A stretch of DNA of 63,552 nucleotides, filler included, from Perkinsus chesapeaki ATCC PRA-425 (taxonomy: Eukaryota > Protista > Perkinsozoa), in NCBI GenBank assembly GCA_013115145.1. It is 3 parts of 3 records of this genome, joined end to end, with 100 filler letters (N's around TTAATTAATTAA, not from the genome) between each part and the next. Parts side by side here need not be neighbours in the genome. Positions count along the whole stretch, not along the records: positions 1 to 30,167 come from JAAPAO010000441.1; positions 30,268 to 56,183 come from JAAPAO010000516.1; 1 more part is not named here. The stretch is one strand, 5' to 3'. Shown piece by piece: positions 2,604 to 43,449 of the stretch. How positions within the stretch are numbered: position 1 is the stretch's first letter; each line of letters begins with the position of its first letter. Position numbers and translations under genes: made by a program. Below the pieces are notes generated by a model. The model was given only the letters and a program-made list of their open reading frames with translations. It did no database searches and was not told the DNA's origin.

Positions 2604-5600
2604 ATGGGTCGAGGAGGAGGCTCCGCAGCGGCGGTCCTCTCTGATCTGTGGACGAGCCTCGACACAGTGTAAGGGTCGTTGGAGGCATGTGTCAGGCACT
2701 TTGCCGTCAGATACTTCGCAAGCATTCCTCAATCTCATGATTTAGTCCACGTCCTGCAGGCCCGCCTCAAAGATACACCAGCGGTTGAGGCCTCAGTCAG
2801 GTGGGGAACACTTTCGGAAGGGGTGATACAAATCTCAGCAGTTCCGACAGCGTGTCCGAGTCAACGTCCTGCACCGCTGAAATGAATGCCGAAAGCTTTG
2901 AGATGAGGTGGGCGCGAACGCTTCCCGAAAAGGTTAGGTCTCCTGATCAGGTTCGACGTTTGCTGTGACGATACTTCTCCAGCTGAATCCGAAAGTGCAA
3001 GCGCGAGCGCGCAGACCGGGAAAACCGCGCTAGGTAGATTTGCTTCCGGAATGCGGAGAACTCCTATCAGACGATCGCCGTCGAACCGTCTTGGTGAACT
3101 TCTCCACCTCGCAAGACGCGGAGAACGGAGGCGATCGGTGGGACACCGCGGTAGGCCGCTCAGGGTCGGGGTTGGCTCATGGAGCGGTCGAGGTTCCGAG
3201 GCTCTTGTACGACAGCAAACCGGGGCGACAGTGGATCATGCCGGAGCCGCCGCTGCCGATTAGTGCCTCTCACGAACATGAAAGTACCCCACCGAACGTC
3301 CAGGCGGTCTTGCGCATTTCCAGGGAGTTAGGGCGACGACCTTCGGTGACCTGTACCGAAGTTATAGAAGTGGAGCCGATAAGGGATGGCAGGGCGGATC
3401 GGGGAAAGGAGGGTAAATCTGGCGAAGATGAGGCTTCGGCGCTCCGAGGTGCGCCGGATGATCATGGACGTGTGCGGACAATCTCGCATTTCAGCGCTTC
3501 TGGCGAAAATCGAGGCGAGAAAGAAAGAGCTTTTATGTCCCGTCTTGGAGGCAATAAAGGTTGATCAGAATGTAAGCGACTGCAGCCTGTTGGGGAATGA
3601 TGGGAAGTCGAACGGTGACGAATTTGCATGTGCGGTGGTGAAGAGCCGTGGGGGGGCAACTTGTATCGGTTCTACGCGACGCAGAAGTTTAGATGGCGAA
3701 CGCCCAGAAGCGTTGTTTCCTCGCGTGCTGGGGCATTAAACTCCATATCCTTCTAGAACTCAAAGTGAACTAATTCGACTTCCCAGCCTCCCATCAGGCG
3801 GGCGTCTAGGTTGTTGATTCCGATGCATTGTGGCTCAGGACCGCCCAAATCGGCAAGCATGGTTCGATGCTGACAAGGTCCTTTTGAACTCGTAAGAATG
3901 AATCTCACTGAATTGCCCATGGCTCCAGCTAGTTACGAGGCGAGTCCTCCTCCAACTTCACACAGTGCTTCGGCATCCGCGGTTCACCAGCCCGCACCGC
4001 CGGCGACCAGGTTGTCGTCTCGAAAAAATATCAGCACGCGAGGAGGGAGCACCGCGATAGACCTGCCGGCCTTGGATGAAGCCTTTCTGGCCAAGCTAGG
4101 CCGAGCTCTTAGAGATGGCGAGGAAGTACCCCCTCCTATGGATGGACAGGACACCGAAGTTGATCTTTGCTGTAAGGGGCGTTGGATAGCACCGCCGAGG
4201 GGCTGTGGTTGGGTTGGCTGTGAAGTGCTCCAAAGGGCTTTGACTGTGTGTTGGTTGCAAGGTTCCATATGCGGGGATGGAGATGTAGATGACGATAATG
4301 CTATTCTAATCTGCGATGGCTGTCACTTTGCAGCGCACCAGAAGTGTTATGGGGTCGGAGCAATCCCCGAGCAAGAATGGTGAGCATTTCATAATTTACC
4401 AAAATTCCATCAGAAAATACGCACGAAAGACTGCGGCCTTGGCAATGTAGACCAACAGCGCCTACGACCTCTCCATCTTCCTCAACTGCGTTGTCAAACT
4501 CCCCCGGGGTTCGCCTTGGAAATGCAAACCTTAGCGTTGGTAGCAGGGAGCCATCTAACTCCACTGAAATGCAGTTCTCGGGCGCCAATAAGTGCTGCTG
4601 AAATATGTGGTTCCTAGACTGATGGAAACGTGAAGTGCATTCCTTCCGGGACTAACATCTGCTGTTCCTTTATGACGCCCTAGTAGGAAGGTGGTGAAAA
4701 AGCCGACCAGAGCTCCATGCAATATTTCCTCGCCATTTTCCAAAATTCATCGTAGGTTCTGCCGAAGCTGCTCAGTGTTCCCTCGGGACGCCAATGATCG
4801 GCCCACTGGAGACCGGCCCGTTTGTGTAGGGAACCTTGTGAACTTCGCCACTCCAGCCTGAATCAGGTCCTCTGTGGCCGAGACTCGGAGTTTGTTGGAG
4901 GTGGACTGATGAAGCCAGCAGTGGTCTCAATGCCCGGCAAATCTGGTGCTCGCTCGGGTACGTTCCAAAATGCAAGATGTGGGAATCGAACCTGAGACCT
5001 TTCGCAGACCTAATGCTGGCAGGCAGCACTCCCAGTCCGACATCCCCCTCCAACGGTGCTGCCTCTAATGCGTCCCTCGGCGCATGGGCGCATGTAAAAT
5101 GTGCAGTGTGGATCAGAGAGTGCTCGATTGATAACCCCACCACTGTGATGGAGCCCATAAGAGCCGTTGTAAGCTACCACCCCGCACCGCAGTCAAGATT
5201 TGAGAACCTCTTCAATAAACCGTATTACTTCATACGCCTGCCAACCCGATTTGGCGGGAAAATACTCTATTTGTGGCTGCGGAATTGCTCTCAACTGGAC
5301 ATTTAAAAGGCATATGATTTCATGCCTAACTTAACCCTTGCCAGTGCTCGTGAGCTCAGATTCATCCATCCCGTCGAGACCTAGTGTGTGGAATTTGCAA
5401 GTCCAAGGCAGGTGCGAAGGTCCAATGTGCCTTCGGGAAATGTAGGCCAGGGGATCGACCGGGTCGCCGTAATCGTATCTTAGGTCAGAACTTCTATCAT
5501 GTCAGCTGCGCTGCACGGTACGGTTTAGTTACTGAAGGAACGAGCGGAAATGCCGCTTGGGTGGGTGGTTTGGTGAAGCCGCAGGTTCGATCCCCGGTTA

Positions 5601-8600
5601 CGGCATTTTTAGGCCATTTACTGTCCAAGACACTCTAAACAGCAACAGAAGCAAGGGAACGCTCTCCTTGCGAGACTTAAAGCCTGGCGGAAGTCCGAGC
5701 ATTTCACTCGGCTCTGCCAGGACAAATTTGTAACTCACAGGTTCGATCCCCGGCAGCTCCATTTTATGTTGTCAGATCGCCCCCTATGACCCTCGACTAG
5801 TGACCGCAATGGGGTTCGACGAAGACTGCCGCGATCCCTCTTTGACACTCCAGTGGAAGTTTGACTCTGAAGAGGCTTGTCTTCGTACCACTCTTCCTTC
5901 AAATCATCCACACATTCCCACCCTAGGCCACCTCCTCGAGCCTGTTGAACGTCTTTGCCTCAACGACACTGCCAGAGCCTTGCTTCCACCTATGATACGT
6001 GATGCTCGAGGGGACTGTCCTCTTCTATATCCAGCCCAAACTGGCGGGGCCACCTCAACAGCGACCACATCAGGCGCTGCGCCCGCTGGTGAGTCTCTGC
6101 TCGACCCCCTGTCCGATGGCCTTGACAGGGTCATTGGCTCGGGGAGTAGGAGCGTACGGAATGCACGTTAATACAGCAGTTGGCTCCACCGCGGGGGCTA
6201 CTAGTCAGACCGATGACTACCCTGGTACCCCTTCAATCCTCCTTGGGCAATTCCCGAATCTTAGGTGTCCTCTATCCGGAGAAAGTAGAGGTTCAGTCGG
6301 CCGAGCAGCTCCGGACGCAAACTCACGCAGCGAGCGGTAGGCCTATTGGGTGCTCTCTGGTGCGAAGACACAATGGAGACTTCGACTTCGGCAAATGCGT
6401 TCTTAGCTGAGCACCAGCCCATTTGGGAAGAAACGTTAAATACGCTTACTCCGGAGCCAGTATGCTCTCATGCTCCTGCACAACTTCCGTCTGTCAGTTT
6501 GCGGAAGATGCAACGAATGCCTCATGAGGGCCAACGATGACGGAGCTGCTGCCCGACGCGATGACATGGGGCGACTGGTGTAAGTCGCCGAATGGCCACC
6601 ATGGGACTTGCCGTTCTTCAGGGCTTGCCAGAACTGCGGGCTCACCGTCCATTGGCGATGCTTCCTCCGGCCGGGGCTGCCCCCCTTGAATGTTGTGGAC
6701 TACGAGGACCCCAAGGTGAGGAAGGCACTTCCTTCAGGTGCTTCCAAGTTCGCATCTCTCGTCGTTTTGCAGTTCACTTCGTCAATGTATCATTGCCCTT
6801 ACCCTTTGGCCGCACGCAACCAAGCGGGGCCATTCCTGTGTGAACGATGCAAGTATGTGAAGCAGTTTGGGGCTGCGGAGGAGGAGATGAAAGCGACGGA
6901 AGGGTTCGAGTTAAATGATCAACACGACAGCGACAAGATAACGCATGTAACTGCCGAACCATGCTGGAATACCGTATTTGCAATCGGTCAAGAGCTTTCG
7001 GCCGAGATCACCAGACAGAGTGTTCGTTCTCCTGTTAAGATTATAAATTTCCTTCAATTTTTTGGCCTTCGGTGAGCACATTCGAAGCTAGACCGTTTCG
7101 GTACCGCAAATACTGTCAGCCCCGATAAGATAGATTATCAGTGTTATGTTGTTGAAGATACAGTGTTAGAATCCCTTCTTCTTGTGTGTTTCCCTCAACA
7201 ACTTGCATACCATAACTTTAACCAAATGACGTGCTAGATTATGATGAACCTTGATAGGGCCAAGTCAAACGATTCGCGGTGGTTCAGGTCCAAGAAGACT
7301 CCAGCAACAACAACCACCGTTGTGATCTGGTGAAGTTCTCTGAGACCTGCTGTATCTTGTGCCAGCAGCTTGGTGGTCTCCTAGTTCGAGTCGAGAACCC
7401 AGACGAGCGTCAATGGGACCCCCACGGATTCTGGGTAAGTCACGCTTTGGTGATGCGTCTATCACTCAGTCGTGTCAGGTTCACCCACGGTGCGTTTACT
7501 GGTTACTTCCGACACAATCTCTGAGCCTCAATATGACCACCACACCAATTGACATAAATTCTCATGCACTCATCAAATCGATTCCCAAGGACGTGCGCAG
7601 TGGCGGGCGCGTGCGTTGATGTTACTCGTCACTTAGGCACACTTCAGTTTGTGCTGGATATGTGGCCAGCGTTCCGGTTGCACTGTGAAATGCGCCAAGT
7701 CAGGCTGCTCGTAAAGATCAGGGGAGACAGTCGCCGCTCAAATCGCTGTGTGTTTCAGTCGACGGTTTCATGTGTCGTGCGGCTGGTACACAGGATGCCA
7801 TTTCGTCATCAAAAACTCCTCTGGAGTGGTACGATAATCTGCACGCGTGCGCACGCTATGATTCTACGAAGGTTCTCGCGGGCTCAGCTTGCCGCCCTAC
7901 ATGCGGTGGTCCTGCTACTGCGAGCCAGAATCCAGCGATCGATAAACAAGTGCAGGAGGCTCTGAGAAACGGTGAGTTCCGATCAACACAACTTCGCTCG
8001 ACTCGGTCTCATCAGAGCGAACCCCTTTGAAGCGATACGCCTACTGTTCGGCACACCGGCCACCGAGGCTGACCGGACGGAAGCTTTCGAATGCGGCGGG
8101 TGCGCTTGTGGACGAGTCCAGAATGCTGTCGTTACCGCACTGTAAGGACCCTTCTGGCGATTGTGCAAATTGTCTCCCCTTCAGATGAAAGCCCTCTGCA
8201 CATGCAATACGCAAACGTTGTTAGAGCTCGAGTGGTAAGGTTATCTGTAGAAGTCGGACTTAACCATCTCGTTAGAATCCTACGAATTTATTCGTGCCGC
8301 TCAACCCGGAGGCTGGAATTGCCGCAGACCAGCGGAAGAAGCGAAAGTTGCCGTCGAACGCGCCTGTGCAGACACCGAAAAGTGAGCAACGGCTGTGGTG
8401 GGATTCATCGGCCGAACGATTGCGCCAGAATCTGCCAAACGCAAAGCCAAACGGCGGCGAGTTAAGAGAGACTCCCATGAGACCTCTCCACCGTTGGTGG
8501 CCAGCAGCATCATCAACCGTGATGGCATAAGTAGGCCGACGATTGGAACCAGTTTCACAGTGATGCTGTTCATGCAGCGGAAGTTGTGGACGCGGACGAC

Positions 8601-8893
8601 TGGACGGGATTCTGCCCCGCATGCGGTGTTGCATGGGACCCCAATGATCCGGGCATGCTAATAGGCTGTGACCAGGTTGGCATGATTGAACTGTAGTCGG
8701 TAAATGTGTTGGTCTTCAGTGCGACAGCTGGTACCATCTGCCATGCGTTGGTTTGGTGTCTGATTTACCGGGAGAGTGGTATGAGCTTGGATTGCGTCCG
8801 AGGCAGTTATCGTTGCACAGGTTCTGTCCCAACTGCACACAGGAGAAGAAAACACCTTCCCGAAAGCGGTCACAGTCCAGCAGCAATCAATAG
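2604..8893 (+). CDS. Multi-exon PHD-finger chromatin reader with two PZP (PHD-Zn knuckle-ePHD) modules and a C-terminal PHD; BRPF/JADE/AF10-like domain content
   Basis: Module 1: ICGDGDVDDDNAILICDGCHFAAHQKCYGVGAIPEQEW, GGLMKP, WAHVKCAVWIREC..MEPI, CGICKSKAGAKVQCAFGKC..FYHVSCA..AIYCPRH. Module 2: CQNCGLTVHWRC..FLCERC, CCILCQQLGG..HPRCVYW, CWICGQRSGCTVKCA, RFHVSCG. Final PHD: CPACGVAWDPNDPGMLIGCDQCDSWYHLPCVG..FCPNC, stop 8891-8893. The start at 2604 and whether 2604-3900 belongs to the same gene are uncertain. Confidence 0.8.
4967..5004 (-). other. tRNA 3'-end-like module, antisense in intron 4958-5007
   Basis: Minus strand reads CGAAAGGTCTCAGGTTCGATT CCCACATCTTGCA TTTT. Removing the intron joins GGLMKP..GARS to DLMLAG..WAHVKC in frame. 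Confidence 0.8.
5581..5610 (+). other. tRNA 3'-end-like module, sense, abutting the 3' splice site
   Basis: GCAGGTTCGATC CCCGGTTACGGCA TTTTT AG. The next exon restores AIYCPRH, the end of the ePHD. Exact donor is ambiguous. Confidence 0.75.
5737..5765 (+). other. tRNA 3'-end-like module (Ala-like end), sense in intron 5730-5775
   Basis: ACAGGTTCGATC CCCGGCAGCTCCA TTTT. Splicing gives QDKF|IAPYDPRL in frame. Confidence 0.8.
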
Positions 8894-10333: not shown

Positions 10334-10493
10334 TTCGAGAAAACGTATGATAACAGGACCCTGACGATGACAGCAGTACACAATCTTCTAAGCTTGGATA
10401 GCGCCCTCGAAAACGAGTTCGAAATCAAATAGATCAGCACGGCGAGCGCCAGTTACAAATATCTTGTGACTATAGCCATAGCGGAGCGAGAAA

Positions 10494-10529
10494 AAGGTCG
10501 CGGGTTCGAACCCCGGCCAGGTCACTTTT
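10494..10529 (+). other. tRNA 3'-end-like module (Trp-like end) between two minus-strand CDSs
   Basis: AAGGTCGCGGGTTCGAAC CCCGGCCAGGTCA CTTTT. Lies in a 56-nt GT..AG-bounded minus-strand segment whose intron status is unproven. Confidence 0.7.
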
Positions 10530-10656
10530 GCATAATGGTAAATGTAGCACTGTTGAAGACAACGCAATAGAGGGGAGAAACTGATCACTTATGGGGCAAG
10601 TATAACAATATGAATTCACAATGCACTACGTATGATACACACCAGCACAAAATAGA

Positions 10657-16000: not shown

Positions 16001-17691
16001 ACATGAAGGGTGTTTCAATTTCACACACAGCATACATTTTACCGCATCTTTTTGATCAGGACCGAAGTTCAGCTCCTAAGACTTCAGTCCAATATGTAAA
16101 ATGGTGTGCATAAGTTTTCGAATCACGCCATCTATTTGATTCGAGGACCCTAGAAATAGCGCTCACTCTTCGCGAGCATTTTTCATTCAAACGTATCCAC
16201 TTGATAAACCCCTGCTGCTGCTCACCGCTGTTTTTCCCGGAGAGCTCAATCTCATCCTGGCTAACGGTCCTCGAAGGACGGCGATTGGAAGGGCCGCTCT
16301 CGTTACCTCTAGACGAGCAACGGGAACCTATACGAATGAAAATAGTCACGCGCCGCGAAATTATAGTACTACTCCGACGGAAGGACCGGCTTAACTGACG
16401 CTTTCTCTGACGGTAAGTGCGCGCCAAGTTGAGCGAGGGCCACTGAAAATGGGAGCAATGAACAGGCGCAGGTTCGATTCCCAGCCCCGGCATACTGCGT
16501 CTTCTTCGTCCTCGGTTCCCATACAAGTCTCGGCTGAATCCGAACGATAGGCCAACGAAGAGGCATCACTGGAGGCGTCATCGTCCAGGATTATCTGACG
16601 GCGAATATTCCATGCATGTGATCGCCCGAGAAAGACTTTCTATGAAATTCACCATCTATTTGGAACGCATGGAGCTCGATGCATGATTCAAGAGAGGGGA
16701 GATTCAATTAATCATAATTTCGATAATTTCTACCATTTCTATCAATTGAGGTGAGATTTAGAAGCACAAAAGAAAAATAACCAACTTATCGATCAATATG
16801 ATTTCAATATCCCAAAAAGAGTAACCGAAGGAATATCCACGACGGCCTGTGCAATTGGGGGGCAATTTCTGATTTACGCAAAGGCAAACATTTTAATCCT
16901 GAGGAGCTTTGGAGATAAGAAGAACTAACTTACCTGTTTCACGAGCATTTGATAACGACCAAGCTTGATGAGATCTCCTTCATGAAGGCAATAACCAGTG
17001 GGGGCAGAATGACGGACCACCACCCAGGAATGGAGCTCGTCATCATTAGCGCCGACTGAGACCATAGCGACTAGATGGTCTAGCAGTTAAAGGAGTTGCT
17101 TGGTAAGCAAACAATCCCTGGGTCGATTCTTGCAGCTAGCTATTTACTTACTGGGAGCTCTTCTATGGACGGTCTTCGCAACAAAGCCATCATCAGTTTC
17201 ATTCCTGAAGGGAAACTCTCTATTAAAAACAAGACTCCTCTACTATATATAACGCCTCCAATAATATAACCCTAACTTCTGAAAATAATTATCTCTGAAG
17301 CAACTCCAGAAGCCAGGACAGGCAAAACGGAGCTGGGATTATATTCGCAAGCACATGTCCTTAATATCTGTTTTATATATTTTCAGCGGGCCGATAAATG
17401 CAATGCGCCTTTTCAATCATATCTGTCATCGAGACCCACTCGGGGATAGCCGGCATCCTCCAAGAGTAATTTCGCGTGTCCATACAGAATACATTTTTCT
17501 CACAATCTCCACCCTTACTACCTGGCCAGACGCAGCAAAGGCATTCTGTCATCGGGATGGGACGGATCTCTAACAGCGAGCGCCACTTCAGATTTGGTAG
17601 GGTCGGCCAGGGGACTGTCCGCTCGGACGAACTTGGCGTCTGAGACAACATTGTGCATAGGAAATTCGAAGGTCACTACTACCTGCGGCAT
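13025..17691 (-). CDS. Multi-exon FHA-domain + RINGv (MARCH-type) E3 ligase-like protein
   Basis: RINGv: DDPMIAPCNCSGSIR|YVHLSCLRRWI..CELCKQVYP. FHA: VVIGRGHESQVRITDVS and ENGHVFIQ|DLMSKFGTLV. Ends approximate; an upstream exon near 17927-18127 is possible. Confidence 0.8.
16464..16492 (+). other. tRNA 3'-end-like module, antisense to the FHA/RINGv gene
   Basis: AGGCGCAGGTTCGATT CCCAGCCCCGGCA, inside a 53-nt GT..AG segment (16443-16495) on the minus strand. No oligo-T. Confidence 0.65.
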
Positions 17692-29670: not shown

Positions 29671-29743
29671 TACCCCACCGGAGGATCGAACTCGGGATCT
29701 CCACCCTAGGAGGGTGGCGCCTTATCCATTAGGCTAGCAGGGC
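29671..29743 (-). tRNA. tRNA-Arg(CCT), array copy 1
   Basis: GCCCTGCTAGCCTAATGGATAAGGCGCCACCCTCCTAGGGTGGAGATCCCGAGTTCGATCCTCCGGTGGGGTA. Cloverleaf with anticodon stem CCACC/GGTGG and CCT anticodon. One T-stem mismatch. Confidence 0.85.
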
Positions 29744-29830
29744 TGATAAACGCAGAAACTTGCAGGTATTTTTGTCGCCTTGCCATGTTTTTAAGACAAC
29801 AACAACAATTGTCTCACATCGTCTGGTATT

Positions 29831-29903
29831 TATCCTACCCGAGGATCGAACTCGGAATCTTCACCTTAGGAGGGTGGCGCCTTATCCATTGGGCCAGCAG
29901 AGC
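29831..29903 (-). tRNA. tRNA-Arg(CCT), array copy 2 (possibly defective)
   Basis: Same cloverleaf 160 bp away, with a C:A mismatch in both the acceptor and anticodon stems. Confidence 0.8.
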
Positions 29904-29990
29904 TGATGAATTAATGACATGGTGGATTTCCCGGCGTCCTGCTAGCCTCTAAGGCAAGACAACGACAAATCTCTCACATGCTCTGGCGTC

Positions 29991-30063
29991 TACCCTACCC
30001 GAGTATCGAACTCGGAATCTCCACCTTAGGAGGGTGGCGCCTTATCCATTGGGCCAGCAGCAC
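29991..30063 (-). tRNA. tRNA-Arg(CCT), array copy 3
   Basis: Same cloverleaf, with a G:G mismatch in the acceptor stem and TTCGATA in the T-loop. Confidence 0.8.
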
Positions 30064-30150
30064 TGATGAATTGATGACATGGTGGATTTCCCGGCGTCCT
30101 GCTAGCCTCTAAGGCAAGACAACAACAATTGTCTCACATTGTCTGGCGTC

Positions 30151-30167
30151 TACCCTACCCGAGGATC
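30151..30167 (-). tRNA. 3' end of a fourth tRNA-Arg copy, truncated by the assembly gap
   Basis: TACCCTACCCGAGGATC at exactly the next 160-bp position, followed by Ns. Confidence 0.7.
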
Positions 30168-30320: not shown

Positions 30321-32388
30321 CTAGTGGGCACACGACATCAACATAATTAAGTGGCGCGCGGTCGAAGCCAAGGCGGCAGTACCTCCGCCTGAAGCCTCTT
30401 CCTTATCAGGTTGAGCTTCAGGAGGAGAACCTCGCGATGGTGACAAGGATATTTCAAACCAACCTGAACGAGTATCATAGCTCCACGCGTGCACATCACT
30501 ACTGCTGCGGCGCTGCGATGATCCTCTCCGGCGAGATACCTTACGCGGCGACCCTGCAGGCGGGCCATCTGAAGTTAAAATGTCCTCACTGGGAATCGAA
30601 CCTGTGTCTTCTTCACCACTATCAGGTCTTTCTTTCCTTCGCTTGTCGTCGGATGATCTCCTCTGTTTCGGACTTACCGGACGAACACCTCGTGGCTTCT
30701 CCCGCTCGAATCTATCTGAAGCAAATCGTCAAAGTAACATTTTCAACATCAGTTCGAGGAATAGTAAGCAACTTAGTTTGGTTAATCAGTTAGCATCCTA
30801 ATAGGAAGGCAATTTTCTGCTCACGAGAGATCGAATCTGAGTCAATGCTTCCGAAAGCCTCTCGCGGGCGAAACTTGGCGCCCATTTCGGAGAGCCCCCA
30901 AAGTTGGAGACTACAGGTTAACCAAGTTAAACCCTTTCACTTGAGGACGTCTCCCGATTGAGTTGGCACGCGCGTCCACCAGTATGTATCGTTTGGATAT
31001 TAATGGGCGAGCGAAATTGGTTTCTCTGACTGTGAGCAAAACTGAAGTTATTCGAGTTGTTAAAGTTGTTTTAGTTTATTTCGCTGAAGAAATCTGCTCG
31101 ATTTCTTAAAACGCGTCAAATAGGACTTTCAAACAAGTCGAAGGTGAGGTCAACTTTCGATTCACCGCTAGGGTGTTGGACAGCTACATGTATTCAAACA
31201 CTATTAGATGCCGTGCGTATCTCCCTTCAGTGTGAAATGCATGCATGAAGCTCTCACCTCTCGAAGACGGTGGACGCTCTATCTGTCTTTGTCTAGGTCC
31301 AGCTTGAGCATCGTCACGCGCCTTCCTCCAAGCATCGATATCTTTTGCATCCGACCGACGAGAGGCTGACCAAGAAAATTCAAGTCGATCCAGAAAGATA
31401 CGCCTCACTCCGCTTTGGCGATGAAGTTGATGATCTCCTCTCACGAACAGGCTCCTTTGATGATCGGCGACGACTCCTAGCGAAAAATACCGAATCGATC
31501 GCGTGATCGATTTACCTGCTCGGGCTTCTACTACTGTCCGAAGAGCTACTGCTGCTGCTATCACTCTCACTACTGCTGTCGGAATCAGACTCGCTATCAC
31601 TTGACGATGAAGAGGACGAGGACGAGGAAGATTCCGAGGGCGACCTTCGCCGACTTCGTTTAGTATCTCTCACTTTTGCTCGACCTCGACCATTGACTAA
31701 ACAGACGTCCTCCGCAAAACAGTCAATAGTCGTGAATAGGAGAGCTATTCAGATGATTTACCTAATCCCTCGGCACGCCTATTCAGATGATTTACCTAAT
31801 CCCTCGGAACGCCTTTGGAGGCGAATACTGACAGTTTCCGTGACACCATCGCCAACACATATCATTTGCAAGACACCTCATAAAAGTTGAATCCCGAGAA
31901 AAACCATTGAAATTAATTTCGTGGCGCGCTAGAAATGCGCCATCCAACAGCTCACCTTTCCTCTTTGTCGCATCAGCAGGCATTTTCGCATCCTTCATTT
32001 CACCTCTTTCTCTCTCTCCAAACCGTTTCGTGTCGTACAGAAAATTATTCCTGAAATTCGGAAATTTCTCGGAAATTTCTGGAAATTTTCCCTCACTTTG
32101 GAACGTCCGGCCCAGGATCCTCGTTAAACTTCGGCTGGTACTTTTTGCTCCGAATTTTTTGCATCTAAAAACGTCAGATGCCGGAATCGAACCCGCCACC
32201 TTTGACTTACCCGAGACATCCTGCTGGCATTCTTCGGAGGGTTCTTGCACTCATAACTCCAGTGACCGTACTGAAAAACGGCAAACATGCAACGAAAAGA
32301 GGGCGGAGCGAAGCACGCCTACCTGGAGGCAATTTTGGCACAAAATATCTTCCTTCGCCTTTGACGTTGCAGTTGAGAGTTTCAACAT
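30321..32388 (-). CDS. ZCCHC10-like zinc-knuckle protein with a Ser/Arg-rich tail
   Basis: MLKLSTATSKAKEDILCQNCLQ|YGHWSYECKNPPKNASRMSR|MQKIRSKK, followed by a long poly-Ser/Asp and RS-rich region. 3' end tentative. Confidence 0.7.
30577..30605 (-). other. tRNA 3'-end-like module, sense
   Basis: ACAGGTTCGATT CCCAGTGAGGACA TTTT AACTTCAG. The candidate 48-nt intron is in frame, so splicing is not proven. Confidence 0.65.
32167..32203 (-). other. tRNA 3'-end-like module (Asn-like end), sense in intron 32165-32210
   Basis: GTAAGTCAAAGGTGGCGGGTTCGATT CCGGCATCTGACG TTTTT AG. Splicing restores RMSR|MQKIR. Confidence 0.85.
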
Positions 32389-32711: not shown

Positions 32712-35700
32712 TCATCCATTTGATTCGTCAGAGTAAGAAGAGTCGCTGTCATCTTTTTCCTCATGGCCTTCCGAGGATCCTTCAGAGGAGCTATCGATGC
32801 TCTGATAATCCTCCTCTTGCCGGCGGCGATGAGTCGACCGATCTCGGCGAGAATAAGCAGCCCCGACGTTATCTTCTTCGTCTAACAATCGAAAGGCCGT
32901 CGGGTCAAATCCCACGGCGAGCATTTACATGATGACGAAGCCACTTGAGTAGTTCCTTCTGGATTGAGCTTGGCAATCTCGACACCAAGACGATGGATTA
33001 TTTCCTGAATTAAAATGCCTCTACAAAGAATCGAACCTGTGCCTCCAGTAGCCCACATCGTCGGGAACACACAGCAGTGAACACCAATCCGACACCGCGC
33101 GCTCGTCTTCGGAAGAAAATCTATAGATTCGGTCGGAAGCCTCTCCCTCGCTCGCAAACCTCTGTTCCTCACGCAACCGAAACGCTTCCATCCACGCGGA
33201 GACCTGAATATCCAAATCGATCACGTGATCGATTTCATCATTCCTACAAATATGTCATCAACGCCCATGTTGTTCCTCCTCAAAGATGGATCGGCGTCAC
33301 ATTCTTCAACAAGGAAATGCGTCATTTCAAAGTCCAACAAACCAACGACCAGATTCAGTGCTGGCGTCATACCTAACAATCGAAAGGTCGCGGGTTCGAA
33401 CCCCGCCGGCTCCATTTTTCACCTGCTGTTCCCACTGGACAGTTGACAAGATTCCTTACCGCTTCGGGACCATGTCTCTCGCGCATCTGGGAAATTTTCC
33501 GTCAAAAAATCGGAAAAATGTTGGAAAATTTCCTTACCGCACCGAGTAGTATTTTTGCAGCACTAAACTGACGAACATCAATGGCGATATCAGCTGCTGT
33601 GCAACCTTCCCGATTGGGAACACCGGCATCCGCACCGTGACCTAGAACGTAAAACATGAATCGCTTCGCTCCGCTAAACCACTCATTCCATTTCTGCCGT
33701 TATATCGATCACTTAAGCTCGAAGTCGACTTGTGCAGAGTAAGCCGTTTGTGAATTGATAGAGAGTATTGCCAGCGAGCTGTCGCGAATTAACTTAAATG
33801 CCATCATCCGTAACGATAAGAAGATCGCGTCATCAAAAATCGATTCCCCCTGACCAATATGGACTATAGTCATCGAATGCATCGGTCAACATCAGATAGA
33901 CGATATCATCTTATTTAACAAAATAAAACATAATACCAATTAATCTACTGTCGGTAATAATACCTCAGCCAGGGATCGAACCCACGATCTTACCCAGGAG
34001 AAACGAGATGAGCTCCACTCCGCCATCCGGTCGTCCAGCCACTCTATGCAGTGGAGTTTCGCCGGTCTTAGGATTTACGTAGTTCACATCCGCCCCGAAA
34101 TCTTCTACGCAAATCCGAACCATCGAGATGACCGACTCCTCCATATTTCGGCACACCTGACCGGAAGGAAAGGTGGGAAATATATTAACTGTTGATTGCA
34201 CACACTATAATTAAAGTTTTCAGAAAATTTTTTTTTGTCACGCAGGAAAATTTCCGATAAATTAATCGTCAAACTTATTATTTTCCCCCCGATAATATCG
34301 TCCATAAATTGCCCCTCTCTCCAACTTACTCTCATCAGCGTCGACTCTCCAGTATCACTCGCCACGGCATTAGCCTCTGCTCCAGCCTTCACCAACACAT
34401 CGAGGATACTCTTATCGACGCCCATCTCAACCGCCAACTGAAACGGTGTGGCCTTTCTGTTCGAAAAAGTATCAACCTGGCAAAAGTCTTAGCGGAGCGA
34501 AGCACCATTTTTTTCACTTCGGCGCCGGCCGCCAGCAGCAATCTGACCACGCCAAGGCGGTTGGAATCTTCCGGTCCTCGCAAAGCTCCGAAGAGCGCCG
34601 TCTCACCACCGGCGATTTTCTTGTTGACCTCCGCTCCGCTGTCAATAAGAAGTTTGCAAATTTCAATATCACCCTTTTCGGCTGATAAATACAAGACGCT
34701 CTTGCCGTTCCAAGGCACCAAATTCGGCTTCGCTCCGCCTAAAAATAAACGACAAAATTTGTAAAACAAACAGAACCACAAAGACGTATCGATACGGAAA
34801 CGAATACGTTTCGCCCCTCCCCGCAACCAACGCATTCCGACTCCCTCGAAGATCCGAGACTCCGACGAAATTCTGAATCCTACCAGGTAAAGCCTCTCAA
34901 CATCACAACGCCTCCTGCCATTTCTCACGCGCCACGAAACTCCTCACCTGCAAGCAGTATTTTCGATAGCTCGTAATGTCCTTTCTCGACAGCGGTGTGC
35001 AGCGGAGTGACGCCAGTTTTCGGATGAGGTAGGTCCAACTCCGCTCCGCTCTCGATCGCCATCTTGCACGCTTCAATATCATTTCTCCTGACAAAAATCG
35101 ATTCCATTGCTGAAGAAGAACACTAACTCATCCTCAACCATCTCCTAACGTTCCCCAACAAAAAAGCCTAAAATTTTTCAAAAATTTCAACTTTTCATTT
35201 CAAAAATTTTCCTCCACTTACTCAGCTGCCGAGTGTAAATCCATAGCCTTCAGCAATGCCTGAGTCTGTGCATCCTCGGTCATCTCCATCAACGTCCTTC
35301 CATTAGCATCCGTCACATTCAATTGCGCTCCATTAGAAACCAAGCACTTTATCTAAATCTTGCTAATCTTACTAAATCTTGCATTTCCTCAACGCTTTCT
35401 CACCATGTCCCTATCGTCCGCTGCCACTGCTATCATCAATGACGTGTCCCCCTCTGGTCCAATGACATTCGGGTCTGCCGAGAATTCCAACAACACCGAC
35501 GCCATTCCCACAGAGCACCCATTCTTAACAGCCTAAGAACGCCCCTCTTCAAGTAGAATCATTTTGCACGCATGCGCACGCTACCAGGATGAGCAATGGT
35601 TCGCTTGTAGCCTCATCCACCAAAGTGGCTTCGACACCGTTTTTGAGGAGAGACCGCATGCTGCTCACAGCGTCACCAGAAGCTTCATTTGGCGTCATAG

Positions 35701-37581
35701 ATGCCGACCGCTGTAGAAAATGCGACTAAAAATGACAGGTGCCGGGATCGAACCCGCGACAACTACGACAAACCTTCTTTCCTCCATTAGCAACTCCCAG
35801 GGAGCCGAACGAGGCGTTCCTGAGATGAGGCAATAATTTTGAGGCGCGCGGTCACTGCTACCTGCTGAAGTGCTTTTCAACATCACTACTACCGCTGCTC
35901 GCACGTAGTGCTGAGAGACTTCCAGAGGAGTCCGATGAGGCATCGGACGAGGTGTCATCGTATATCTCATCATATTTCTCGCCGAATCTACCAATCAAAT
36001 CGATCATTGAACGCATGCACACGACGTGGCTCGCAAGCTGAGCTATTTTGTATCTTTTCAAACCCACCTTGCTAAAGCAATCGCCAAAATATTCCGAATT
36101 TCCAACACAGCATTGGCCACTTCAGTAAACTTCTCAGTGGTATCTTAGGTCGACGCATGCAAGATACACAAAAGGTCAACAGCCTTACTATCTCCTCCTA
36201 AACCATCAAGAGACCTTACACTTCCCGTTAATGATCTGGACCTTCCCTTCTTCCCCTCAATTGCCGTGGTCATCAACCCGCTCAACTTCGCAGTCTCCCT
36301 CCGCCTCAGCGATTTACTCTCCACCATTATCTCTGATGACGGGAGTAGTATTCACACTTTCGCACGAACTCTGTTCCCAAATATATTTTACAAAGTTCTG
36401 ATCTCCTCAGATCTGTGAATCCCACCAAATTTAAAAAACGGTACAACTGCAGATAATAAGCTACCGATTCATTGCTACCTCACTCATTTACGGCCTTCAA
36501 ATTGGCTTATATCCAAATCGCTCATTTACAGTTAGTTTGCTCGTATTTACTTGGAGATGAATCCACCGAACACGTGTCATTCGGGAAGACTCGATAAGCG
36601 CAGAAAGTAGCAAGGTAACATCCAAGAGTAGTACGAGTTGTCGGATTAAGACAGCTGCTGGTTGTTCAGTAGCATACAAATTATACTCTACCGATATCCG
36701 ATGATATCTATAATGCTGCAGTGCCATGTAGTGTAGATTCTATGTTGAGATATTATTAGTATTCAGGCAACCCATTATTTTCATCACTACTATTTATACC
36801 GTCCCCTTTTTCTTACTTAATCCACTGACGTCGAATGGTGAAGTCGCGTAGTTAATCGCTGTCAAGTTGGACTCGTCCATTATCAAAGGATTCGCTCCGC
36901 CATCCAAAAGATACGAAACAATATCAACCTTCAAATCCTTGATTGCAACATGCAAAGGCGTACCTAAAACACTAGCTATACCCAAATCGATCGCGCGATC
37001 GATTACGTTGATCCACTGGACTTATTGTATTCACCGCAACAGACTCAATTTCAGTCATCACATCTACCGCTGCATCCCTTCCCCACCGGACCGCCAACAT
37101 CAGTAACGTGTCTCCGGTTTTCAGCTCATCAATTGCGAACGGAGATACCACCTCGTCCGCAATAAGGTCGATAAAACTCTAAAAAGCACCAGCCAGGAAT
37201 CGAACCCACGCCCTTTCCAATGGCAGCCTACATCCATATCGTTCTTAGTTATACAATACACCGCTTTTGCCTCCATATAAAGCGTCACCGACTCCGGACT
37301 ATTTGATATTCGCTCCAATAAATCATCCCTCTTCAACTTAACCAATTCAGTGAACGATCCGCACAACCCAGTAGCGTCATAGTCACCCTGACACACATTT
37401 CTTGCGCGCCACAAAACTCTTCACATACCGCTATAAATAGGTATTCCTCACAAACGTAATCGTCGGCCTTCAGACTCCTAACCTCCTCCGAGACGACTTC
37501 CTCCTCCTCATCGGCGCTCTCGTTGCGGATCTTCCTACTTTGTGGCGATCGTTTTGTAACATCACTGAGGACGATCACCAT
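32712..37581 (-). CDS. Multi-exon ankyrin-repeat protein
   Basis: Ankyrin repeats: TPLHVAIKDLKVDIVSYLLDGGANP, GDTSLMIAVAADD, TGVTPLHTAVEKGHYELSKILL, GETALFGAL, TGETPLHRVAG..LISFLL|GHGADAGVPNREG, GMTPALNLVVG. Acidic Ser-rich C-terminus ends at 32712. Start approximate. Confidence 0.85.
32882..32926 (+). other. tRNA 3'-half-like module, antisense, filling intron 32882-32928
   Basis: CTAACAATCGAAAGGCCGTCGGGTCAAAT CCCACGGCGAGCA TTT. Degenerate T-loop; shares 15 nt with the 33372 copy. Confidence 0.7.
33012..33044 (-). other. tRNA 3'-end-like module, sense
   Basis: AGGCACAGGTTCGATT CTTTGTAGAGGCA TTTT AATTCAG at the 3' end of an intron. Confidence 0.65.
33372..33419 (+). other. tRNA 3'-half-like module (Val-AAC-like loop), antisense, filling intron 33373-33422
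   Basis: CCTAACAATCGAAAGGTCGCGGGTTCGAACCCCGCCGGCTCCA TTTTT with a perfect T-stem GCGGG/CCCGC. Splicing gives PVGTA|GMTPAL. Confidence 0.85.
33959..33991 (-). other. tRNA 3'-end-like module, sense, at the 5' end of intron 33642-33993
   Basis: GTAAGATCGTGGGTTCGATC CCTGGCTGAGGTA TT. Confidence 0.75.
35728..35760 (-). other. tRNA 3'-end-like module, sense in intron 35726-35773
   Basis: GTCGCGGGTTCGATC CCGGCACCTGTCA TTTTT AG. Confidence 0.8.
37181..37226 (-). other. tRNA 3'-half-like module (Gly-GCC-like), sense in intron 37179-37231
   Basis: CTGCCATTGGAAAGGGCGTGGGTTCGATT CCTGGCTGGTGC TTTTT AG. Both the CT-GCC-A loop and the TGC end are Gly-like. Confidence 0.8.
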
Positions 37582-38063
37582 TCCACGCCATGTTCGCCGT
37601 CTATATTTTTTGAGAAACGGTTTATGCCACTTATGCATTGACAATACGTAAAAACTAATATATTAAAAAACTAAATGTTAAGAATGTAAAAGAATACAAA
37701 TACATACAGAATTATATAGAATATAAATAAATACTTAGAACTCTTCAATGAGAACTCTAAAAAGTGGATGCATGAGAGCACCTGTTGAAAGTTCAACCGT
37801 CTTTAGATGACCGGTACTGCATGCAAATTGCAGTCAAAGCATGAAACCGTCGATGATCGATATCTCGATATCGATTAGCTTCTCCATACATTTTTGGGCT
37901 TAAAATTTACCAGATTTTCCCCCACAGGATGGATTAAGTTATCAAACAAGAAATACTCTAGCACTTTTCCACGAATGCAGAATATTATTTCAATCCCTAA
38001 AATACTTCTTCATAAAATCCTCTATTTGATTAAAAAATGACCGCAGCGCCACGAAATTAAATC

Positions 38064-41000
38064 TCACTTGGCACTCATGTCCATCGTCGACCTGTTGGTC
38101 ATATCTCCGGTACTCTTAACCACACCACTCGTCACAACGGCAACCAGCGTGATCTTCCCTTTGCGGACAAAATACCTGAAAAATACCCTCGCCGAGGTTC
38201 GAACCTGCGCCTGCTTCTCCTTACATCCCGTCAGCTGGTTCTCCCTGATAGAACATGACGTCTCCAGGCGCACAGAAAACGTGACTGCAAGCCATGCAGA
38301 TCCGAGCTAGCAGCTCCTCTCTAATGCACGTGAAAAATTTATACCTACCAAGCAGAGGAACTCTAAATAAAACAACCTGTCCTAGAAATACGAGATTGAC
38401 GATTGGCCTAACTTCGATGATACGAGGCGACATCAGCGGGGATCGAACCCACGACCTTTCGCTTACCGTCTCAGTAACTTCCCCATCAATGTAAGCTGCA
38501 TTTCATTCTTCAGCGACTCTGATAACTGAAAGCCATGCCTTCTATTATCTTATACCTTCTTCACTTTTACCATCGTCATCAGCTCTGCCTTCGCTTTACT
38601 CTCAAACTGATTGTCGAGCAAGTTCTCAATATAGCGCCGAACGCGCAACTGAAAAATCATCATCAACTTCGAAGTGTCAATACTTTATCGATCGAAGATA
38701 TGAAGTATAACTCCAGCGGTTGTGCGAGGCGACGGAAGCGACCGCCGATGATCTCCACTAGAGCACGTATTTTGCTTTTTTCCGAAAGAGGACAGAAAAG
38801 AGGAATAGACAACACACTCCGTCGCCACCGAGATGCCAGAGATTCCCTGAGCGCATCGAGCTTTAGAATGCGATGAAAATAGTGTACTTTCACCATCAAC
38901 TATGCCTCCTACAGGGACATGCGCATGCGTGCAAAATTGCACAATCGTCTGTCTACCTGTAAATGCGGCCCAACATTATTGGCTCGCATAAATTTCATCG
39001 CTCTCTTCATCCTCTGTCTAAACTCAGTTTTATACTCGCCAAATGATACCACAAGATTCGTCACCGATCCTGATAATAATTTCCTGGCGCGTGACTTTTC
39101 CGCATCTACCCTACCGACAACCACGGCAAAAATGACCCCAGCAGCAAGCATCAACAACATAGTGAAGTTCCTTTCGCTGTTATTTTCCGCCGCAACCGGA
39201 CCATACATCGTCGACACCACCGAGACCGCATAAAATAAAGAGCGGACGTACCTGGGTGAAATGGGCAAAAAGTTAAAAAACGGAAATTTCTGAAAAAAGC
39301 CAGGAAAATTTGGTAGAAACAAAGAGGATAAGTCCGGGACTTAAGTCCCGGATGAAGGGGACTTAAAGTCCCCTTTATCATGAAGGGTTTATGCAATGTC
39401 CGTTGAGGTTCCCACGGGTTCACGGTTCATTTCTGCAAATCGTCTCGCTACCGCCTCGATTTTGGAGCCGAGGAGGCAGCATCCACCGTCATAGAGAGTT
39501 CGGAATATCGTCCCTACTGTTGAATTTTTTGTGGAAAAGCAAGGGAATGAAAAGAGTGGAGAATTCTTAATGTTACTCTGGAGAAGAGATACTCTTAACA
39601 AACTGTGAGGATTCGAAAACAGTTTTAACTGATGAAGGCCAACATGCTTAACAAGGACTAACAATGCATCCATAAAAAATACCCAACTTAAGAAGATCTC
39701 CTGCGAATACCGACGAACCTCAACCGGGTTTTCGGGTTTTCGGGTTTCGGGTCTTACTTGTCATAAAGTGCTCCTTCAATATCTAAACTATTTTCTCTAA
39801 CCCAATTATCCTCTGAATCAATCTGTGCCTCACCAATGGCCCACCAGCAGCATGCTATCCAGTGGCTGAAGCACATTAACCCGAGGAACATCTTGAACAT
39901 GGTGAACGCCACAAGCCAAACATCAGACTCGATATGCTCCTCCATTTTAGTAAGGAGAGGTCGAAGTCGAACCAGACGGAGCAATCTCGCCAGTCCTGAA
40001 GAGAACGCTTGCCTGCGATTGACTTTTCGGCGGTTTCGTTTAAATGTAGGAATTTTTCCCCTTATTACATTTTTTATACAGCTCAAGACATACAAATTTT
40101 CCGAAGAAAAATAGAGGAAGAAATTTCTAGGATTGCGGAGCGAGCGATACGTAGTATCTTCTCACTTTGTGCATGCGTACAAATGATCCAGCAGTTAGAC
40201 GATGATGATCTACAAGTTGTACACCACTTTGGGGACACTGGAAGTGATACGAAAAGCGGGTTCTGATTGTATCTTGAAACTTAGCGAGCAAAAAAGCTAT
40301 TTTGTGCAGAAAAATGACAGGCCCGGGGATCGAACTTGCGACCATCTAACAGATTCAGTGATGATTCCGTTCCTTCGCCAAAAAAGGCCAAGTAGGAATT
40401 TTCCACCCTAAAAACATATTTGTTTTCCACTGAAAAATGAAGCGCATGACGCATAAGTGCTTAAGAGAGCATGAATTCAGTCGTGTCTCCTCCTCCTCCT
40501 CCCATTCTTACTCATTATCCTCGAGATGCCTACGATGGCGGATGCTCCCATATGACTGTGGGCGTCATCTACAGCAAACACGCACATTTTTACACAAATT
40601 TACAGAAATTTTCCCGGAATTTTTTCTCTCTAATTCGCATAAAAATACCGCAACGGTGATTAACCGTTTTTTCCCCGCAATTTTTCCCATCTTCCCGAAA
40701 TTTCCCAAATTTTCCTTTTTTTCCGAAAATTTTCTGCGGATTTCCTCTCCCAATATTACGTCCCGCCAAGAGCCAGCTGAATGGCGTTGATGCCATCAAG
40801 TCGATTAGGAACCAAGTGCTGGTGTAGTTCGCAATAATCGCCCGATGCTCTAAATTAAGCTCCTAAAGAAGCGTTGAGGAAATGCAAGATTTGCCAAGAT
40901 ATTACACCCCTGGACCAGAAACCCGTGAAGAAGTTGAGGACAAGATCTGTCATAAAAAAGATATCGACGCATCGATCGACATCCAGCAGCAAATTCTTAG

Positions 41001-43449
41001 GTTCGGCGTCAAAGGTTAGAAGATACGGCACCTGGACAAGAATGACACACTTTACGCTTATACTGCTGCGATCACTTCGGAAAGACTTATACCAGTCCTG
41101 ATAACCTTACAGTAGGGATTCCCTACTATAAAGCTATCGGGACTGATGAATGATCCCTACTAGGGACTATGACTTGACTGGTGAAGGATGACGAGAGCTG
41201 GGGATAATTCAACATATTTAATATAATTTATGAAGATCAATATTAATATATATATTTTATAGAATACCAGACTTGCTCGGTGGAGGGACGGAGTACAGAG
41301 GACCGCAAATTCTGTTGGACGGGCGCAAGTTCGATCCTCAGGTCTGTAATTTCTCTGCGTAAAATCGTTTTCAGTACTCCAGAGTAAGAGCTATGATAGC
41401 TCAGCTATCAAGTGGTGCACGGCAGGCGACTGTAACCTAATCTCTAGATCATCGAGCTGCTGGGTAATTTGAACGCATGCACAAAGTGTTAGAAATGCGA
41501 CAATACACGCTCTGCTCTGTCCGCAATTCGGAGTACGAACGTTTCTCAGCACGAACACAAAGAGGGAAGGACTCTCCCGAAATACTACCAGAAATGATTG
41601 ATAGGCGATGAACAGGAGGCCGATGAAGTCCCAAAATAATCGGAATTTACGATCCGGATAAACAACCCATCTCGCTGAAGAACCTGGAACAAAATACCTC
41701 CACCAGGAATCGAACCTCCGCCTGAGCTCACTTCTATCGTCGGAGAGATTCCCGTTAATGCTGGCCATTCCGGGCTTCGTCTGATGAGCGAATTTCGATA
41801 AGGATTTGGTCGACAGCCGCTCGCCCTGATGATAAAACCCATGAAAAAACTTTTTGGAAAATTTCCATCATATTTCCAGCTTAGTGAAATCTCCTCTGAC
41901 ACGAGAGTGTGGGATAGGAGGAACACAGCGGGTGATGGAGTCGATCCGGTTTGGTCGGAAACCGAGGGACAAACTATCAAACTCTAGTCTGTTATGACCG
42001 AACTCTCGGGACTAGTAGTCATAACAGACTCAATAAAATAATCAACCTATGCCAGCGGTACATTTCTGCTCCGCGTGAAACATGGTTGTTGGCAACAGCT
42101 TCGTGCTCGTCATATCGATCGGCGTCGCTGAGATATTGCACGCATGCGACCGACAGGTTGTGTCGAAACATTGCGCGTGCGTGACGGGGCATCGGGTGTT
42201 TCACTCTCTTGATCTTTCGTCGATTTCACCACCGCAACGCTCCGCTATGCTTTCAAGAAAAAATTCCAGAATTTCCGAAATTTTCCGCATTTCCCCACCA
42301 CTACAGATGGTCGAGATTTCCGCTGCAGTGAGGAGGATCTCTGAGACGTCCCGAAGTTGGAGCCTGAACTGGGGGTATCCAAATCGATCAACCGTTTCAT
42401 AACTTACCGCGGTCTGTCATGGCGGCGTTATAACTGGCAACAAGCAAATTCAGGGCACCTTTAGGTGACGAGTCGTCCGTGGTTTCAGCGTGCAAAACAA
42501 CCTTCACTGGCTCAACTGCGAAACAATCTCACAGTATCTTAGCTTCAACCGTGCATGAACTACCAGTAACTCCTTTTTGATTATCATCAACCTTTCCCGA
42601 ATCTTCCCCGACAACTGCGATGTCTTCAGTAAGATCGTTACCTGCCATTTAACAGTCGAAAGGTCGCCGGTTCGATCCCCGCGTCCGGCAATTTTACTCC
42701 AGAACGCCTTATGTGAAGACTCATTGGAGATCTGAGACACCCCGCTTCTCGACCTCCTCACTCTCTTCTTAATTTCTCCAGTCTAACAGCAATTTCCTGG
42801 CGCGTGACGGAACTACCAAAACTACATTGCTGACACTGCCCGGTAAGTCCAGAAGACTGCCCCTCGACGATCTTCGATTTTCATCCTCAGTTTTTCCAGG
42901 TGACATCGATCTGCTCAGAACTGGCAATTCCTCCGCAGCTCGGTCCCTCAAATCTTGAAGCCCCGGGGACGAAGCAGCATCCTTTGCTCGACTGTGCAGT
43001 CGTTTTCTTCCGGGTGCGATTCTGCGAGTATCCAAAACCGTCGGACATGGCAAATCTTCCGCTGGCTCAGCTTCCGTGCACGCTGGAACTTCAACCTCCA
43101 CATCCTTGGCTTCCCCGGGTGATAGCCCCGCGATGATCTCTCTAACCTGTTCCACAATCGATCTGTGATGCTCCGCCAAATCCTGCGCGAGCGCCTTAGC
43201 CAACCCAATTTGCATCTTTTGAATTTCAAGCAGCATATCCTGAGGAGACATCTCCACCGTCCCACCAAGACCGTTTCCGGCAAAAATCTTCGAAGGTCCA
43301 AAGATATCTTGCTCCGAACCACCCGGAATCTGTCGATTTTTCCGCGGGCTCGACCCGACCCCACCGGCGGAAGGCACAGCTAGAGACTGCACCCGTCTAA
43401 AAGATGCCTTCTTCTGCGGGCGAGGCGAGACATCTGCCACGATGACCAT
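38064..43449 (-). CDS. Cyclic-nucleotide-gated / EAG-type cation channel (6TM + cNMP-binding domain), multi-exon
   Basis: S1: WVVYPDRKFRLFWDFIGLLFIAYQ. S4: LARLLRLVRLRPLL. S5: FSHWIACCWWAIG. Pore: YVRSLFYAVSVVSTMYGPVAAENNSER. cNMP: PGDVMFYQGEPADG|MYFVRKGKI. Ends approximate. Confidence 0.88.
38179..38212 (-). other. tRNA 3'-end-like module, sense in intron 38176-38224
   Basis: AGGCGCAGGTTCGAAC CTCGGCGAGGGTA TTTTT CAG. Splicing restores the cNMP motif GEPADG|MYFVRKG. Confidence 0.85.
38428..38462 (-). other. tRNA 3'-end-like module, sense, at the 5' end of intron 38345-38466
   Basis: GCGAAAGGTCGTGGGTTCGATC CCCGCTGATGTCG. No oligo-T. Confidence 0.75.
40310..40345 (-). other. tRNA 3'-end-like module, sense
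   Basis: ATGGTCGCAAGTTCGATC CCCGGGCCTGTCA TTTTT. Shares CCTGTCATTTTT with the 35728 copy. Confidence 0.7.
41691..41723 (-). other. tRNA 3'-end-like module, sense in intron 41684-41731
   Basis: AGGCGGAGGTTCGATT CCTGGTGGAGGTA TTTT GTTCCAG. Splicing leads in frame into SARWVVYPD. Confidence 0.8.
42649..42695 (+). other. tRNA 3'-half-like module, antisense in intron 42642-42697
   Basis: TTAACAGTCGAAAGGTCGCCGGTTCGATC CCCGCGTCCGGCA ATTTT. Confidence 0.8.

Follow-up and report, generated by a model that had tools for sequence, protein, structure and literature searches.

Why would the short introns of a protist that parasitizes clams carry, again and again and in either orientation, what reads as the 3' end of a transfer RNA (tRNA) gene? 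The question is raised by a 63,552-nucleotide (nt) stretch of DNA from Perkinsus chesapeaki ATCC PRA-425 (assembly GCA_013115145.1), referred to here as the window, in which 19 such modules can be read. An earlier note on this DNA had offered three explanations, namely intron seeding, a source of tRNA-fragment RNAs, or DNA binding sites, and it is the third that the sequence appears to support. We give about even credence to the reading that the modules form a 32-base family of intronic elements, at which, as DNA, the transcription factor TFIIIC would dock and which would be kept by selection. The analysis relies on the window, on database proteins, and on the contigs of a DNA run (X1), which is possibly the window's own source. 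Introns were inferred from spliced protein matches, and deposited gene models are predictions. Module coordinates cover tRNA positions 44-77, a label such as 30601 designates a site within the module (in this case 30577..30610), and tRNA numbering was applied to the 18 modules with a perfect core for all positional counts.

The pattern GGTTCGANYCC is matched 16 times, i.e., at 14 sites (two being palindromic doubles), compared with a mean of 0.16 and a maximum of one in shuffles; the excess over chance reported earlier is, thus, confirmed. All 18 of the previously listed sites are present, and one more was found at 41329 (+). Another site, 5460 (-), in intron 5442-5483, was dropped, as it carries a T54 mismatch, its A-TTT is exonic, and its flank-matrix score is too low for listing. 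The 19 modules are as follows:

4967..5000, minus strand: antisense, in the 50-nt intron 4958-5007 of a PHD-finger gene
5576..5609, plus strand: sense, in the 52-nt intron 5561-5612 of host gene 1
5732..5765, plus strand: sense, in the 46-nt intron 5730-5775 of host gene 1
10495..10528, plus strand (10504): in a candidate minus-strand GT-AG intron, 10470-10525, with the end of the T-run just outside
16463..16496, plus strand (16472): without a T-run, in a candidate minus-strand intron, 16443-16495
30577..30610, minus strand (30601): in an annotated coding exon of P0288, with a possible in-frame GT-AG intron at 30569-30616 (48 nt) or 30569-30619 (51 nt)
32168..32201, minus strand: sense, in the 46-nt intron 32165-32210 of a zinc-knuckle/SR gene
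32894..32927, plus strand (32903): B-box decayed, unlike in any other module; antisense, in the hand-mapped 47-nt intron 32882-32928
33012..33045, minus strand: sense, in the 52-nt intron 33005-33056
33385..33418, plus strand (33394): the most tRNA-like, with an intact T-stem and an anticodon-loop-like stretch at 33373-33379; antisense, filling the 50-nt intron 33373-33422
33957..33990, minus strand: sense, at the 5' end of the 352-nt intron 33642-33993
35729..35762, minus strand: sense, in the 48-nt intron 35726-35773
37181..37214, minus strand (37205): sense, in the 53-nt intron 37179-37231, with a GCC loop and a TGC end, both of which we take to be Gly-like
38180..38213, minus strand (38204): sense, in the 49-nt intron 38176-38224; positions 61-73 equal the local tRNA-Arg at 11 of 13
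38424..38457, minus strand (38448): without a T-run; sense, at the 5' end of the 122-nt intron 38345-38466
40311..40344, minus strand (40335): in the middle of the 516-nt intron 39996-40511
41320..41353, plus strand (41329): newly added, an inverted paralog of 40335 (49/61 identical), within intron 41157-41588
41691..41724, minus strand: sense, in the 48-nt in-frame intron 41684-41731, which would add 16 residues, 15 of them absent from the sister protein
42661..42694, plus strand (42670): antisense, in the 56-nt intron 42642-42697

What these copies share spans tRNA positions 46-77 and reads approximately G-N-C-G-C-R-G-G-T-T-C-G-A-T-Y-C-C-C-G-S-N4-K-N-Y-A-T-T-T-T, for a content of about 34 bits. 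Information peaks at positions 46, 48-52, 53-62 (the B-box), 63-65, 70, and 72-77, and drops to about zero at positions 66-69 (25% mean pairwise identity) and upstream of 41. C48 occurs in 17 of the 18 modules and G46 in 16, and all 19 modules but one have a perfect B-box core. The A-ended 13-nt stretch and the T-run that follows it are also recovered as described, with A73 in 15 of 18 and T in 15-16 of 18 at each of positions 74-77. The window has 32 sites with a perfect core; a TTT begins at position 74 in 13 of these and at position 75 in 14, compared with 0-2 at offsets 63-73 and 77-84. None of the modules encodes CCA. The B-box identity and the tRNA-gene-like register, therefore, hold, but the parentage that had been read from the 13-nt ends (Ala, His, Gly, Trp, Asn, and Arg) does not. 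As positions 66-69 are random, such isotype labels carry no signal, and they are further undercut by position 70 (G or T in 18/18) and position 65 (G or C in 18/18), both constrained in a way that real tRNAs are not.

The module is an unfolded sequence, not a folded piece of tRNA. Its consensus T-stem mispairs with itself, G49 (14/18) facing G65 (12/18) and A51 (10/18) facing C63 (12/18). The outer T-stem pairs are formed in 24 of 54 cases, compared with 26.9 after permuting 5' and 3' halves between modules, and in 100, 79, and 100% of 29 distinct real tRNA 3' halves, a prokaryotic control set whose 5' strand is fixed by the pattern used to choose it. Overall, the T-stem is broken in 16 of 18 modules and intact in 33394 and 38448. 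Only one of 11 modules folds better than its shuffles, although this test is weak, as a real tRNA-Arg half does no better either. An A-box lies upstream of one of 18 modules (0.8 expected), compared with three of three tRNA-Arg genes, in agreement with the earlier statement that no 5' half accompanies the copies. These genes, used as an in-window control, are the only whole tRNAs returned by ARAGORN (introns up to 3000 nt) and Rfam over the window:

29671..30063, minus strand: three whole tRNA-Arg(CCT) genes in a 160-bp tandem array, with an A-box and without oligo-T after position 73

The array (29639-30167, minus strand) reaches an assembly gap, and its acceptor stems contain mismatches. There is no TTTT anywhere on its coding strand, and RNA polymerase III (Pol III) would, therefore, have to read through the units or use another terminator. 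The lack of TTTT after position 73 in the window's own tRNA-Arg genes locally weakens the proposal that the modules come from pre-tRNA trailers. At relaxed thresholds, ARAGORN also paired some modules with distant 5' halves; these pairs cross coding exons and belong to 22 calls (19 of them weak) scattered all over the window, and were rejected.

Could the modules nevertheless belong to split or permuted tRNA genes and have their 5' halves elsewhere? The intact T-stems of 33394 and 38448 and an anticodon-loop-like heptamer, in register in a few modules, speak for it, but the 16 broken stems do not, and whole tRNA genes exist in the window. Within 1.5 kb, candidate 5' halves reach six of seven pairs at most and are located in unrelated sequence; for the Arg genes, by contrast, the same search finds the genes' own halves. 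We regard this explanation as very improbable.

The second striking feature of the modules is their location, which was assessed in three host genes:

2565..8890, plus strand: host gene 1, a multi-PHD-finger protein with 34 introns, from an exact spliced match to P0138
30384..32609, minus strand: host gene 2, a zinc-knuckle/SR-rich protein with nine introns, model P0288 (P. chesapeaki, 100% identity)
32715..43449, minus strand: host gene 3, a cyclic-nucleotide-binding ion channel with ankyrin repeats; 29 introns via P0121 and nine hand-mapped against P0135

P0121 is a P. chesapeaki protein with 100% identity to the exon query of the channel gene; with P0288, it confirms the window as DNA of this species. 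As deposited, it ends early and contains a doubtful exon (41076-41156); the spliced frame runs on through more ankyrin repeats, as in P. olseni P0135. This hand-mapped tail has 451 open codons and 243/390 identities to P0135, and its last intron lies past the aligned region. A metagenome search with the channel gene found no relative.

The 81 introns mapped in the three genes account for 50.4% of 19,287 bases and form the chief non-coding space there. Sixteen of them, about one in five, carry a module, and 16 of the 17 in-gene modules are intronic (p=1.6e-4). The claim that nearly all modules sit in short GT-AG introns, thus, stands for intronic position, with two reservations: 30601 is annotated as coding, and four of the 16 lie in introns of 122-516 nt. 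For 10504 and 16472, the only context is one candidate GT-AG segment each. No sister protein was found to decide between coding and intron status at 30601. Elsewhere, sister proteins run through 10 tested junctions with a length difference of 0-2 residues (three or four of these junctions being in poorly conserved sequence), so the module segments are non-coding there. The junction between GEPADG and MYFVRK, given earlier as a case in which splicing restores a conserved domain, is that of intron 38176-38224. The regions of the window at 17-29 kb and 44-63 kb are free of modules.

How did the modules come to be in introns? One possibility, which we consider rather unlikely, is intron seeding, i.e., 3' fragments of tRNA genes inserting in exons, being tolerated for the splice signals that they bring, and so creating new introns. 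The signals would be the T-run plus AG in sense copies, and the reverse complement of C32-T33, read as AG, in antisense copies. Twelve module introns are short (46-56 nt) and consist mostly of module, the 3' AG directly follows the T-run (tRNA positions 79-81) in five sense copies, and it is the complement of positions 32-33 in 33394 and 32903. Copying is visible between 33394 and 42670 (14/16 at positions 32-47) and between 40335 and 41329, and more than 500 tRNA genes, of five types, are reported for P. marinus (PMC3706591). On the other hand, the ends of the short module introns are not fixed, one lying at tRNA positions 25-42 and the other at 78-87. There is no target-site duplication signal, as junction repeats are 0-4 nt, compared with a mean of 1.67 in 58 other introns, and the splice consensus is ordinary. 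Two modules lie in the middle of an intron, and another two at the 5' end of a long one. Module-bearing short introns are longer than the 40 other short introns (49.8 vs. 44.6 nt, p=1.3e-4), but this excess of about 5 nt equally fits the filling of existing introns. No alleles without a module were found among the X1 contigs, but this does not count as evidence, since contigs drop variants and X1 is possibly the source of the window DNA. Finally, seeding leaves the undecayed B-box unexplained; it can, however, coexist with TFIIIC docking, as the route of origin.

The state of the B-box is also what counts most directly in judging whether the modules are neutral relics, i.e., scattered, decayed fragments of tRNA pseudogenes that survive in introns only because exons reject them. 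Their exact tRNA register and the abundance of tRNA genes in the genus (PMC3706591) favor this idea. So does a control search with the class-I pattern, which behaves as a tRNA signature: in prokaryote (81) and viral (1) records, 76 of 82 matches fall inside whole tRNA genes. The other six were not called whole tRNAs (three resemble contig-edge or masked archaeal genes), and orphan copies are not the norm in these records. The sites were, moreover, initially selected by their B-box. If decay were neutral, most B-boxes should be decayed too, given that stem pairing is at chance level. At 25% divergence, only 10% of copies are expected to retain eight core bases, but the core is perfect in 18 of 19. 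Sites with a YA-TTT tail comprise 13 with a perfect core (0.3 expected), one with one mismatch (1.5 expected), and 14 with two mismatches (12 expected). A matrix built on the flanks only removes the selection bias: it recovers all 18 modules (leave-one-out scores of 6.7-24.9 bits), and at a threshold of at least 10 bits it gives 32 hits, i.e., the 18 known modules and 14 others, one with two core mismatches and 13 with at least four. The window, thus, holds no pool of B-box-decayed copies, the only convincing one being 32903. The paralogs 40335 and 41329 are identical at positions 48-61, which lends weak support to selection. The consensus mispairs G49·G65 and A51·C63 are impossible from one functional tRNA, and no D-arm 5' halves lie alongside the modules. 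When the best module was compared with 93,430 X1 contigs (at least 80% likeness), two other contigs matched, one of them twice, with single-copy-like depth and non-tRNA flanks; the length threshold of this comparison being unknown, it does not show that a parent gene is absent. Neutral relics are, in our view, improbable.

The orientation of the modules relative to their host genes (12 sense and six antisense, as reported earlier, or 12:7 when 41329 is counted) does not depart from an even split (p=0.36). This mild, non-significant sense excess, the T-runs at 3' splice sites, and human intronic tRNA look-alikes that promote splicing (PMC7722341) are what an RNA-level element would draw on, the intron RNA acting as a splicing enhancer or yielding tRNA-fragment-like small RNAs. 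Yet these human nuclear intronic mitochondrial-derived tRNAs (nimtRNAs) are whole cloverleafs of mitochondrial origin whose action as RNA is described as requiring that fold (PMC7722341), whereas the Perkinsus modules are 3' ends only and have lost it. A nimtRNA-type splicing element was, therefore, rejected. Antisense copies (seven of 19) retain the same core, and there is no A-box for Pol III transcription. The unpaired T-stem, the fold test, and these antisense copies also disfavor the tRNA-fragment RNA source suggested by the earlier note, and an RNA-level role seems to us quite improbable.

With no fold, no fixed orientation, and no A-box, but with conserved flanks around its B-box, the motif resembles extra TFIIIC (ETC) sites. 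TFIIIC docking, the reading that we prefer, could have come about as follows. The 3' ends of tRNA genes would be the ultimate source of the modules and would have spread by copying into introns, because about 34 bits are too much to arise site by site. The copies would then have been retained as intronic sites for tauB, the TFIIIC subcomplex, with the T-run of sense copies lent to the 3' splice site. As at yeast ETC sites, tauB may bind without recruiting TFIIIB or Pol III, possibly in a role in chromatin organization. In yeast, tauB contacts base +47 of tRNA-His (template G), which is standard position 48 by our own renumbering. The bases from +44 to +47 have an effect on binding or transcription, and downstream bases that ETC loci conserve are in contact with tau91 (PMC11724288).

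Yeast ETC sites and Schizosaccharomyces pombe chromosome-organizing clamp (COC) sites are, together with the extra-TFIIIC sites of Caenorhabditis elegans, the closest known systems. Yeast ETC sites consist of a B-box with a 10-base 3' extension (PMC3395662). ETC and COC sites alike combine a B-box with a conserved 3' extension, and the Perkinsus modules similarly have no A-box upstream (PMC3395662, PMC11724288, PMC12409998). The modules conform to the B-box consensus and lie outside Pol III genes, with positions 63-65, 70, and 72-77 conserved 3' of the B-box; by sequence, they are ETC-like and candidate members. They differ in their oligo-T at 74-77 and in their tRNA-like flank at 44-52. Furthermore, TFIIIC binding without TFIIIB or Pol III has been demonstrated at the yeast sites and is a prediction for the modules, and the yeast sites are eight and intergenic, mostly between divergent genes, compared with 16 in 81 introns inside genes. 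The C. elegans sites, related to CeRep3 putative tRNA pseudogenes, are likewise tRNA-related, intron-enriched, and bound by TFIIIC independently of transcription (PMC6950938); unlike the modules, they are described as having Box A as well as Box B, and a single repeat family overlaps 214 of them, whereas the modules have no A-box, belong to no single family, and fill most of 46-56-nt introns.

Several points weigh against TFIIIC docking. The likeness of positions 46-77 to the stretch contacted by yeast tauB is, downstream, one of extent and not of bases matched one by one to the yeast ETC logo. The oligo-T lies beyond the 10-base ETC extension and may, in sense copies, be kept by splicing. Some copies are tRNA-like past the footprint (33394, 37205, and 38204, with an Rfam E=0.073 for 33363-33417), one in-gene module (30601, in P0288) is exonic by annotation, and the real-tRNA pairing control is the pattern-selected prokaryotic set described above. 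Selection is deduced from this one window. The density of about one in five introns is far above that of known ETC sets, which number 8 in yeast and more than 1800 in human (PMC12409998), and TFIIIC inside transcribed genes might hinder Pol II. Lastly, a literature search found no paper pairing TFIIIC with Perkinsus.

Other kinds of element deserve comparison. A tRNA-derived SINE, in which a head with A- and B-box is followed by a common body and tail, was rejected, as the modules have no A-box and resemble one another over 31-46 nt, the one exception being a 61-nt pair. Introners are also recurrent sequences that make up whole short introns in either orientation (PMC9860276, PMC12130899), but the modules lack shared ends over their whole length (positions 66-69 being random), and show neither target-site duplications nor terminal inverted repeats, the latter judged by eye on the 12 short introns; neither introner survey mentions Perkinsus or tRNA in its main text. 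In the same genus, the Dada transposons of P. marinus break tRNA genes (PMC3706591). These are, however, kilobase elements with 6-7-bp duplications, of which three families duplicate TAGCTC in the A-box (PMC3706591). Dada was rejected as a direct source of modules, since insertion in the A-box would leave much longer 3' pieces.

The introns of the window contain other recurrent sequences. The motif (TCAC)GCGCCnnGAAA(TT) occurs in both orientations at 13824, 16350, 31917, 32438, 34929, 35837, 37406, 38046, 39080, 42793, and 48933, its in-gene copies being intronic in eight of eight cases (p=0.004), a placement that we count in favor of the docking reading; we take the motif to resemble E2F-type sites. 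An 18-bp near-palindrome, ATCGATC(A/G)CG(T/C)GATCGAT, fills three short introns (31494, 33216, and 36986), two of which have matches in 8-10 other contigs whose flanks are unrelated. Two intronic motifs of about 20 nt, at 33652-33675 and 42381-42400 (GCGGAGCGAAGC... and ATCGATCAACCGTTTC...), are each found in 8-13 other contigs, also with unrelated flanks. Many of the X1 contigs aligned on 30.3-43.5 kb have matches of about 20 nt, which fall at modules as well as at other intron motifs. In the channel gene, two short introns (35366-35397 and 40869-40900) share 32 nt at 91%, in opposite orientation and without tRNA likeness, which suggests that other sequences also move between introns. As for the neighboring genes, an intronless alpha-methylacyl-CoA racemase (CoA-transferase III) open reading frame (ORF) is located at 43597-44985 (-), amid intron-rich genes; its best match is from P. 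olseni (59%), followed by unnamed metagenomic proteins at about 40%. At 57040-61225 (+), in the part from 44 kb to the window end where there are zero modules, lie a PIF1-like helicase ORF and an ORF with a MULE transposase domain. A Pfam scan of 57 further ORFs named one zinc knuckle and nothing else.

What would such a system mean for Perkinsus? The earlier note knew of no published description of intronic modules, and a literature search, with most subscription papers outside its coverage, found none. More tentatively than for docking itself, we propose that tRNA-gene tails have been turned into a genome-wide lattice of TFIIIC sites, in which about one-fifth of introns, some created or refilled by the fragments, may partly exist to hold a chromatin-organizing site. 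The density in the window (19 in 63.5 kb) would then correspond to the order of ten thousand sites in a genome of about 43 Mb, inside the protein-coding genes of the dinoflagellate sister group, which would represent a new use for introns and, at the same time, a new source of their sequence. Should the fragments also create introns, this would be a source of intron gain that we have not found in print. If TFIIIC binds, the ETC system would be orders of magnitude denser than that of yeast, and inside genes, and comparing Perkinsus genomes could address two questions, i.e., why tiny introns are retained and what role transcription-independent TFIIIC sites play. As Perkinsus retains typical histones, next to the dinoflagellates (PMC3101222), the finding may also bear on the change of chromatin organization in the dinoflagellate lineage.

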